Source: Patescibacteria group bacterium
GTDB taxonomy: Bacteria > Patescibacteriota > Minisyncoccia > Phycocordibacterales > Phycocordibacteraceae
Reading direction: 5' to 3'
Assembly: GCA_029260935.1 (NCBI GenBank)
Contig: JAJDCJ010000005.1
Location: 16,073-80,072 of the forward strand
DNA: 64,000 bases
Position numbers and translations under genes: made by a program. Below the pieces are notes generated by a model that searched no databases, was not told where the DNA came from, and saw only the letters and a program-made list of their open reading frames with translations. This document shows positions 32,011 to 32,207 of the stretch, piece by piece; the first letter of the stretch is position 1; every line of letters begins with the position of its first letter.

Positions 32011-32055
32011 CAAAATAAAAGGCGGAATACGATAGTATTTCGCTTTTTATTTTGC

Positions 32056-32207
32056 AGACGGGCTAAGGGAATCGAAAGACGGAGGCGGTATACAAGACGA
32101 GGAGGAACGACGAGTGCTTGTCGCCAAGTCAGGGTCGTGAGCCGTAGAAAATTAAGGAGTGAAATGACTATAATTTTCACGGACTCCTGACCGATTCCCT
32201 ATCCTAC
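32056..32207 (+). repeat. Copy A of a conserved ~150-nt hairpin-rich element (also at 40968-41111)
   Basis: About 93% identical to copy B over about 135 nt. It is preceded by a hairpin (32017-32040) at the same relative position as the hairpin before copy B, but with a different stem sequence. Confidence 0.6.

Follow-up and report, generated by a model that had tools for sequence, protein, structure and literature searches.

Why do two nearly identical, hairpin-rich stretches of DNA lie behind two different glycine tRNA genes of a Patescibacteria group bacterium? Both are found in the window analyzed here, 64,000 nucleotides (nt) of contig JAJDCJ010000005.1 (GenBank assembly GCA_029260935.1), in which copy A trails tRNA-Gly(GCC) and copy B trails tRNA-Gly(TCC). 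Sequence comparison identifies the two copies as paralogs in a family of structured elements that trail tRNA genes across a clade of Patescibacteria. The family, its architecture, covariation, strand polarity, linkage to tRNA genes, and turnover were observed in this study, and the element is judged to be a real, selected module that folds as a single strand.

Two copies with a common three-way junction

Copy A (32066-32200) and copy B (40967-41101) align without gaps and are identical at 125/135 positions (92.6%), in agreement with the approximately 93% identity given in a first-pass annotation of this DNA. A repeat finder paired 32046-32200 with 40947-41101 at 89%, and a 27-mer of the core occurs exactly twice in the window, where shuffles lead one to expect 0. 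The flanks of the two copies are unrelated. As the first-pass annotation had described, each unit follows a ...gcac terminus, and the A-rich sequence upstream (gcacaaaa...) leads into a hairpin and then a T-rich run; the leader hairpins (32021-32043 in copy A and 40923-40944 in copy B) have unlike stem sequences. The proposal that these hairpins are the part conserved in structure is not supported: they are terminator-like, such leaders occur in only 14/36 family members, and the two stand behind different hosts, tRNA-Gly(GCC) and tRNA-Gly(TCC), with no detectable sequence homology. The long hairpin noted in both copies, gagccgtagaaaatta...taattttcacggactc, is present as described and is the P3 stem of the fold given below.

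The host of copy A is the tRNA-Gly(GCC) gene at 31940..32011 on the plus strand (ARAGORN; Rfam tRNA, 65.9 bits), and all parts of copy A lie on that strand. The leader (32021..32053) consists of the hairpin ggcggaatac/gtatttcgc and the T-rich run and is terminator-like by sequence and terminator scan. It is followed by the antitail (32054..32074), which was recognized by comparison with the tRNA: the inner 9 nt, AGGGAATCG, are the complement of the T loop and the 3' side of the T stem, and the outer part, CGGGC, is the complement of GCCCG in the acceptor 3' strand of tRNA-Gly(GCC). The core (32066..32200) matches the family covariance model at 100.2 bits and, in the folds and the parsed skeleton, forms a three-way junction of P1, J1/2 (GAAAG), P2a, a GGA/AA internal loop, P2b with its hairpin, and P3 with a G·U pair. 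The tail, CGATTCCCTATCCTACA (32192..32208), reproduces a tRNA 3' end in degenerate form, with its first 8 nt equal to the tRNA. A second tail-like motif, GTGAGATAGCGAAGCGTCCCAGTGCCCGA (32263..32291, plus strand), was found by sequence comparison; it contains GTGAGATAGCGAAGCGTCCC, which is common to this motif and the tRNA-Gly(TCC) trailer of the related locus L007, and cccagtgcccga, which resembles the 3' end of tRNA-Gly(GCC).

Copy B is also on the plus strand. Its leader (40913..40957, with the hairpin at 40923-40944) is orthologous to the tRNA-Gly(TCC) trailer of the related locus L004 by BLASTN, and its antitail, GCGAGGAGAGGGGAATCG (40958..40975), is an imperfect complement of the tRNA-Gly(TCC) 3' end. 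The core (40967..41101; 97.1 bits) folds into the same three-way junction as in copy A. The tail (41093..41111) is an exact 19-nt copy of tRNA-Gly(TCC) positions 56-74, as the first-pass annotation had seen; it is 19/19 identical to the gene's 3' end at 36338-36356 (repeat D9). A second partial tail, CTTATCCCGCAC followed by ACGAAACGAAG (41177..41199, plus strand), repeats 41100-41122 (repeat D7).

A third family member (31268..31409, minus strand; 91.4 bits) lies behind tRNA-Arg(TCG) (31454..31526, minus strand; ARAGORN; Rfam tRNA). It comprises a leader hairpin (31422-31442), an antitail (31390-31409, CGCCAGGATTCG) complementary to the 3' side of tRNA-Arg, a core (31270-31398), and a tail (31268-31278, CGAATCCTGGC). 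In tandem with it is a degenerate fourth member, AGGATTCGAAGG...GGGGAATCCT (31126..31240, minus strand), which was found by sequence comparison and is undetected by the covariance model. [quoted passage not shown]

Across the family, single-sequence folds and the parsed skeleton give P1 as the helix of antitail and tail, with its inner GGGAAUC/GAUUCCC kept in all members. J1/2 (GAAAG) connects it to P2a (3 bp), a nearly invariant internal loop (5'-GGA/3'-GA), and P2b with a variable hairpin; J2/3 (RG) leads to P3 (GGUCG.../...UGACC), which ends in a variable distal hairpin and adjoins the 3' strand of P1 directly. The unpaired bases of the GAAAG junction and of the GGA/GA internal loop are conserved. 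In an alignment of 18 sequences on this skeleton, 13/20 pairs show changes on both sides (59 cells), and the covariation score of 0.50 compares with 0.02-0.10 in slid controls and is reached by 0/500 shuffles. Unconstrained MAFFT alignment and RNAalifold folding of 11 full-length members recovered P1, P2a, P2b, and P3, with 17/28 pairs compensatory. One G·U pair is invariant (11/11 members), and G·U cells greatly outnumber A·C cells on the tRNA-sense strand, which is therefore the folding strand.

The comparison of copies A and B bears directly on whether they arose from a recent segmental duplication of intergenic DNA and have no selected structure, the scenario that the first-pass annotation had named as refuting. 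Their 92.6% identity between unrelated flanks is what such a duplication would leave. However, 4 of the 10 differences make two compensatory pairs (32079/32129, A-U to G-C, and 32085/32124, G-C to C-G) and 2 others keep wobble pairs, and diverged homologs with the same fold are found in more than 20 other genomes, always behind tRNAs. L007 carries an element with a CCTACA-type tail, like that of copy A, after tRNA-Gly(GCC), so the site of copy A is old, and the identity of A and B is best read as a probable exchange between paralogs. Covariation and family-wide distribution together exclude a simple duplication; we consider it extremely improbable and, as far as comparative data can decide, already refuted.

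Several known motifs were compared with the fold and rejected. The resemblance of GAGCCGTA in P3 to group II intron domain V concerns a sequence present only in the window copies, with a misplaced bulge and no Rfam match. The hammerhead and other small ribozymes do not fit the junction strands (4, 2, and 0 nt) or the motifs and gave no Rfam match, and a kink-turn at the GGA/GA loop is contradicted by Watson-Crick flanking pairs and an unsuited tandem G·A register. The distal P3 hairpin of copies A and B (32145-32174 and 41046-41075), and of these copies only, contains a promoter-like match, TAGAAA-18 nt-TATAAT (10/12 positions), and an 8-codon open reading frame (ORF; MTIIFTDS) with a Shine-Dalgarno-like AGGAG. 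The match was rejected as the element's own promoter, being restricted to the window copies, and the ORF was rejected as a gene; it is not conserved, because distal P3 varies among members.

A family whose arms copy the adjoining tRNA

The family was traced in related Patescibacteria loci, designated by L numbers, to the first set of which 17 further syntenic loci were added. The gene order in these genomes is CCA-adding enzyme, tRNA-Arg, tRNA-Gly(GCC), YraN, tRNA-Pro, MscS, trypsin-like protease, tRNA-Gly(TCC), and HU. The nearest homologs of the window's YraN carry the annotations "Patescibacteria group" or Paceibacterota, and an exact look-up of this protein gave no record. The elements are non-coding and about 100-190 nt long, the units measuring about 100-330 nt, and each separates a tRNA gene from the DNA that natively lies downstream of it; the parts follow in the order tRNA, leader of ~45 nt (often a hairpin), antitail, conserved three-way junction, and tail. 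A covariance model (R1) built from 11 members gave 36 matches in 417 kb of related loci and another 5 in 82 kb of more distantly related loci. With the exception of one weak match (E = 0.04), all lie within ~350 nt downstream of tRNA-Gly(GCC), tRNA-Gly(TCC), tRNA-Arg(TCG), or tRNA-Pro(TGG). When a duplicate was defined as a copy of the tRNA 3' end of at least 10 nt and at most 600 nt downstream, one was present at 11/20 loci of Gly(TCC), 4/16 of Gly(GCC), 10/18 of Pro(TGG), and 3/15 of Arg(TCG). A metagenome scan with the tRNA-Gly(TCC) antitail produced 8 real matches, 8/8 directly after tRNA-Gly(TCC). The element is missing from many orthologous tRNA genes.

The family is uncatalogued. At the gathering score, Rfam 15 found tRNAs and no other family in the window and 7 related loci, so the Rfam scan proposed in the first-pass annotation assigned the units to no family; a permissive scan of 31900-32400 gave only weak chance matches outside the tRNA, and literature searches found no description of such elements. 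Viral contigs scanned with GGGAATCGAARNNCGGAG yielded 5 chance matches in coding DNA and no element. The first-pass suggestion of a small RNA co-located with tRNA-Gly genes is supported by the covariation as regards a structured RNA and fails as regards the restriction to tRNA-Gly, since tRNA-Arg and tRNA-Pro have members too.

The two arms of P1 are derived from the adjoining tRNA in opposite senses. The antitail complements tRNA positions 54-72 by Watson-Crick pairing, at up to 17/17 positions (e.g., GCGGGATAAGGGAATCG), and the tail copies positions 56-74 directly. The tail matches the local tRNA at 18/19 positions or better in about half of 31 members, with several different tRNA sequences; full 17/17 complementarity of the antitail occurs in 8 members and in more when hairpin-split antitails are included. 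The tRNA-Gly(TCC) trailers of L004 and L001 each lead from a hairpin through a structured segment to a 19-nt stretch identical to the tRNA 3' end of their own genome; the tRNA-Gly(TCC) sequences of the two are unlike, and each tail matches its own. One arm may be degenerate while the other is perfect. In L004, the tail matches a strongly diverged tRNA exactly (23 nt) and the antitail keeps the ancestral form; a tail that tracks the tRNA without the antitail fits a pairing of the tail with the tRNA 5' strands. At aligned position 32195/41096, P1 is broken in copy B and the T-loop variant of tRNA-Gly(TCC) is copied. In most members, 44-57 nt lie between the tRNA and P1. Where both arms are complete (L017, L011-2, L036, L009, L012, and L015), members form an acceptor- and T-stem-like helix with an unpaired discriminator, which is not formed where an arm is truncated (copy A, the window tRNA-Arg member, L034, L041, and L044); a helix and the core replace the T loop. 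An origin of the antitail from a tRNA paralog or pseudogene was rejected at three G·U positions of tRNA-Arg. There the antitail reads CCAGG, GCTCCCG, and GAGGG, the complement of the 3' strand, and differs from the tRNA 5' strand (CTGGG, GCTCCTG, and GGGGG), so the element is not simply a decayed tRNA paralog.

Shorter repeated units accompany the family. The tRNA-Pro trailers of L021, L022, and L024, from more distant lineages, consist of minimal units in tandem, each with a terminator hairpin and a short hairpin that repeats the acceptor 3' strand of the tRNA in its own 3' strand; the two of L024 are ~76 nt long and ~95% alike. A junction motif, (T/A)GAGTGAAACGAAG or GAAACGAAG, recurs directly after tRNA ends and tail copies (window 41100-41199; L001 14381-14480; the L011, L016, and L010 trailers), and a very stable mini-hairpin motif, GCGAAGC, is recurrent in leaders and spacers. 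The recurrence of these two motifs suggests further, shorter unit types in the trailer arrays.

The copy B insertion and the neighboring DNA

The tRNA-Gly(TCC) gene that hosts copy B (36285..36356, plus strand; ARAGORN; Rfam tRNA) is separated from its trailer by the segment 36357..40912, which was delimited by inverted repeats I1 and I2, Pfam, and relatives. In the related genomes the trailer adjoins tRNA-Gly(TCC) with no intervening insertion. Because L004 has a homolog of the copy B leader directly after this gene (75.7% over 74 nt, L004 13224-13297; BLASTN), 36357-40912 is a later insertion. On this comparison, copy B is the native trailer of tRNA-Gly(TCC), and the ~4.5 kb of 36357-40912 is not part of the element.

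The insertion holds a large serine recombinase gene and a three-gene ABC-transporter operon, each inside inverted repeats. The recombinase ORF (36346-37980, minus strand) encodes Resolvase, Recombinase, and Zn-ribbon domains. Its segment (36353-38048) is enclosed by inverted repeats of 131 nt (100% identical), which start from the terminal GCAC of the tRNA and into which both ends of the ORF extend; this segment, which related genomes lack, could be an invertible segment or an unusual insertion. The operon (38044-40912), consisting of an NMT1-like binding protein, a permease, and an ATPase, is enclosed by 242-nt, 98% complementary inverted repeats that contain palindromes (38111-38211 and 40745-40845), and it meets the recombinase segment at a GTGC/GCAC junction. 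The serine recombinase was rejected as the integrase of the element because it sits in an insertion that related genomes lack.

The tRNA-Gly(TCC) gene is a hotspot for variable genes, among them this insertion. Such a hotspot, together with the fact that integration commonly leaves partial tRNA copies behind (PMC9897764), would suit the idea that the units are inert attR-type scars of repeated integration and decay of larger islands, with incidental structure. We regard this as highly improbable, because remnants of random deletion would have no reason to agree, over four tRNA types and many species, in a fixed architecture, conserved junction bases, an invariant G·U pair, and compensatory changes. 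Moreover, the available loci contain no larger island bounded by a far copy of the tRNA 3' end, the window's own insertion excepted.

Other features of the region were recorded alongside. Between tRNA-Arg and tRNA-Gly(GCC) lie two small Cys-rich ORFs (31627-31761 and 31782-31895), one of 44 amino acids with 7 Cys and the other of 37 amino acids with 10 Cys (MSSTENLKKWSPLTCSKCRCNCPNCGCDGECCTRCSK), and a similar ORF occupies the same place in L007. Five TTTCAYGTGAAA palindromes are clustered around and within yraN (32308-32906), of 13 matches in the whole window against 1.7 expected, and a DnaA-box-like GTGGATAAG lies near 32482. The palindrome cluster is conserved in the same region of L001, L004, L007, and L011-L017 and may be a regulator-binding or replication-related site. 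The cumulative GC skew has its minimum at ~48000-50000, which could be a replication origin or terminus.

RNA module or mobile DNA

The explanation that we favor, tentatively and a little short of an even chance, is a co-transcribed structured RNA module that spread and was homogenized by recombination at its tRNA-derived arms. The module would be transcribed in the tRNA sense, by read-through or from a location inside the tRNA transcription unit. No terminator-like hairpin separates the tRNA from the element in 22/36 members, and one follows the element within 130 nt in 11/36; in L012 and L052 the element precedes the terminator known from empty tRNA-Gly(GCC) sites. The RNA may then take one of two folds. 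In the first, antitail and tail form P1, which closes the junction. In the second, predicted by folding, the strands are swapped: the antitail takes the 3' part of the tRNA, so that the leader caps a long hairpin, and the 5' strands of the acceptor and T stem pair with the tail; this would produce a complete cloverleaf that bears the element as a T-loop insertion. The predicted minimum-free-energy fold of the whole transcript (tRNA, leader, and element) is swapped in 10/11 loci, at 5.6-11.9 kcal/mol below the fold in which the canonical tRNA was enforced. The swap is a thermodynamic prediction only; it would offer an RNA-level reason why the tail equals the tRNA 3' end and why the antitail complements it.

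Where the arms are complete, P1 would reproduce the acceptor/T helix of the cognate tRNA, and for that reason tRNA-processing enzymes could trim the RNA. This closing helix of acceptor and T-stem sequences resembles the tRNA-like modules of the tmRNA domain, the Y RNA YrlA (PMC4201824), mascRNA, and plant mitochondrial t-elements, as do the unpaired discriminator base of some members and, in L009, L012, and L015, a hairpin at the place of the D and anticodon arms. Unlike those modules, the element has a helix extension and core instead of a T loop, many members are without the acceptor part, and the helix copies the neighboring tRNA exactly rather than a generic tRNA shape; neither a tmRNA nor a Y RNA was matched in the Rfam scans. 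As DNA, the arms would stay true to the tRNA through local copy-correction, and recombination at the shared arms would exchange modules among neighboring tRNA loci, which would explain the 93% identity of copies A and B despite their unrelated flanks.

A further rival is a DNA feature or a cis-acting part of the tRNA transcript that yields no separate RNA product, such as an extended terminator or insulator, a stabilizer of the 3' trailer, or a sensor of tRNA folding. The constant position in the tRNA trailer at a near-fixed distance, the terminator-like leader hairpins of 14/36 members, and the alternative pairing that the antitail makes possible with the tRNA's own 3' part would all suit such a role. 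We consider it quite improbable, however, because a three-way junction with conserved unpaired purines exceeds known terminators and stabilizers in elaboration, and because the many orthologous tRNA genes that have no element imply that it is not needed for tRNA expression.

Several observations weigh against the co-transcribed RNA module. Both window copies lie behind terminator-like hairpins, and no conserved promoter (-35/-10) was found among the members. In many members the tail is truncated or the antitail degenerate, so the full acceptor-like helix is not required. The skeleton parser demanded pairing, which inflates the percentage of paired cells, and nearest-neighbor folding takes no account of tertiary structure in the tRNA, base modifications, or co-transcriptional kinetics, each of which favors the normal tRNA fold over the swapped one. 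The turnover, too, is higher than a functional RNA would lead one to expect. Species whose tRNAs are identical differ at tRNA-Gly(GCC): L011 and L016 have an empty site, L012 has an element of one core type, and L013 and L015 have elements of another; where the element is present in L012, its tail is followed by the terminator of the empty sites, i.e., the native flank is restored. The same core types occur behind different tRNAs, and tandem arrays are common, with examples in L010, L011, L013, and behind the window tRNA-Arg. In three strains that are 96-98% identical upstream, homology ends exactly at the start of the tail, where unrelated DNA begins, and one of them has a swapped distal P3; variable small genes come after the element.

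The main rival is an integrated, non-autonomous mobile element of ~190 nt with a target-mimicking fold, which we regard as possible though somewhat unlikely. The mobile unit would be composed of a tRNA 3'-end copy, leader, antitail, and core, inserted at T-loop position 55/56; it would supply a replacement tRNA 3' end, and the displaced original would become the tail. In a single-stranded form (single-stranded DNA [ssDNA] or an RNA circle), the antitail would pair with the element's own tRNA 3' copy to give a target-mimicking duplex capped by the leader hairpin, the excised circle would be a closed three-armed structure, and strand exchange in the T loop would fall to a recombinase acting in trans, on the pattern of CTX-phage or integron attC recombination. 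The direct repeat does extend from the T loop to the tRNA end or a few nt past it (+aaaa in L004 and caccaat in L007). The empty sites and two core types at identical tRNA-Gly(GCC) genes, the tandem arrays, the nearly constant tRNA-to-P1 distance, the end of inter-strain homology exactly where the tail starts, and the antitail that complements the 3' strand of tRNA-Arg rather than copying its 5' strand at the three G·U positions all point in the same direction. In L017, the tRNA-Pro antitail GGGAATCG mismatches the tail CGATTCTC, as expected if the element carries the antitail and the target supplies the tail. Partial tRNA copies are known to arise when mobile elements integrate (PMC9897764), and folded single-stranded att sites are known (PMC3442271 and PMC4792948).

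Against mobility, none of ~40 units contains or adjoins a gene for an integrase, Rep, or reverse transcriptase; the only recombinases of the loci are a conserved Xer-like gene ~5 kb away and, in this window only, the serine recombinase of the separate insertion. The scans found no tRNA-free, viral-contig, or free-form copy, and no inverted core-type binding site adjoins the tail. The outermost tail of L011 is exact and the inner, supposedly younger one is decayed; in L004, the exact tail beside a decayed antitail points to maintenance of the tail and not to recent insertion. Leader and core types are shuffled rather than linked. The first-pass alternative, the conserved distal arm of an integration site, is borne out in part: the tail is a tRNA copy from the T loop to the 3' end, and empty sites and tandem arrays exist, but no integrase is present in the unit.

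Known mobile systems share some of these features. As in the att duplications of tRNA-targeting integrative elements with T-loop sublocation (Williams 2002, as cited in PMC9897764), a direct repeat of the tRNA 3' segment from the T loop brackets DNA and leaves the tRNA intact, and relatives have empty sites and tandem arrays; unlike in those elements, the bracketed segment is only ~190 nt, non-coding, and without an integrase inside, and it adds an inverted copy of the tRNA segment and a covarying three-way junction. As in CTX-phage attP(+) and integron attC sites (PMC3442271 and PMC4792948), inverted segments fold on one strand to imitate the target, with variable tips and a strand-specific fold whose G·U pairs lie on the sense strand alone in the present family. 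Here, however, a tRNA gene would be the target in place of dif or attI, R-box and dif-like sequences are absent, and the ssDNA form is purely hypothetical; the loci have no IntI, Rep, or phage genes, and nothing links their Xer-like gene to tRNA sites. The 17-19 nt perfectly complementary to a tRNA 3' end recall the primer-binding sites of long-terminal-repeat (LTR) retroelements, and the tail equals 3' tRNA fragments in extent, but the complement stops at position 72, leaving CCA uncovered, the tail identity may reach the genomic flank, and neither reverse transcriptase nor LTRs are present; the primer-binding-site idea was rejected because CCA lies outside the antitail. Retron msr/msd RNA likewise has a closing inverted repeat around two or three hairpins, one of them long and variable, whereas the closing repeat here is tRNA-derived and the element always lies in a tRNA trailer; no reverse-transcriptase domain was found in neighboring genes.

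A bolder form of mobility seems unlikely to us: the units would be integrated copies of a tiny (~190 nt), gene-less, non-coding replicon or circle, guided to the tRNA T loop by the base complementarity of its antitail, carrying its own replacement 3' end and folding into a closed three-armed, viroid-like structure, i.e., a programmable integrating element.

Patescibacteria have tiny, streamlined genomes, and in this clade several tRNA genes are followed by elaborately folded, fast-turnover non-coding modules in which the closing helix is recast to fit the neighboring tRNA. If these modules act as RNA, they would form an uncatalogued class that exploits tRNA sequence and possibly tRNA-processing enzymes, and a tRNA 3' end could in principle be swapped for a spare copy. 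If they are mobile DNA, they would be the smallest kind of tRNA-targeting element, gene-less and with a target-mimicking fold. On either reading, the family accounts for the partial tRNA copies and repeats in these genomes and marks a hotspot of gene insertion, and its covariance model is ready for use in annotation.

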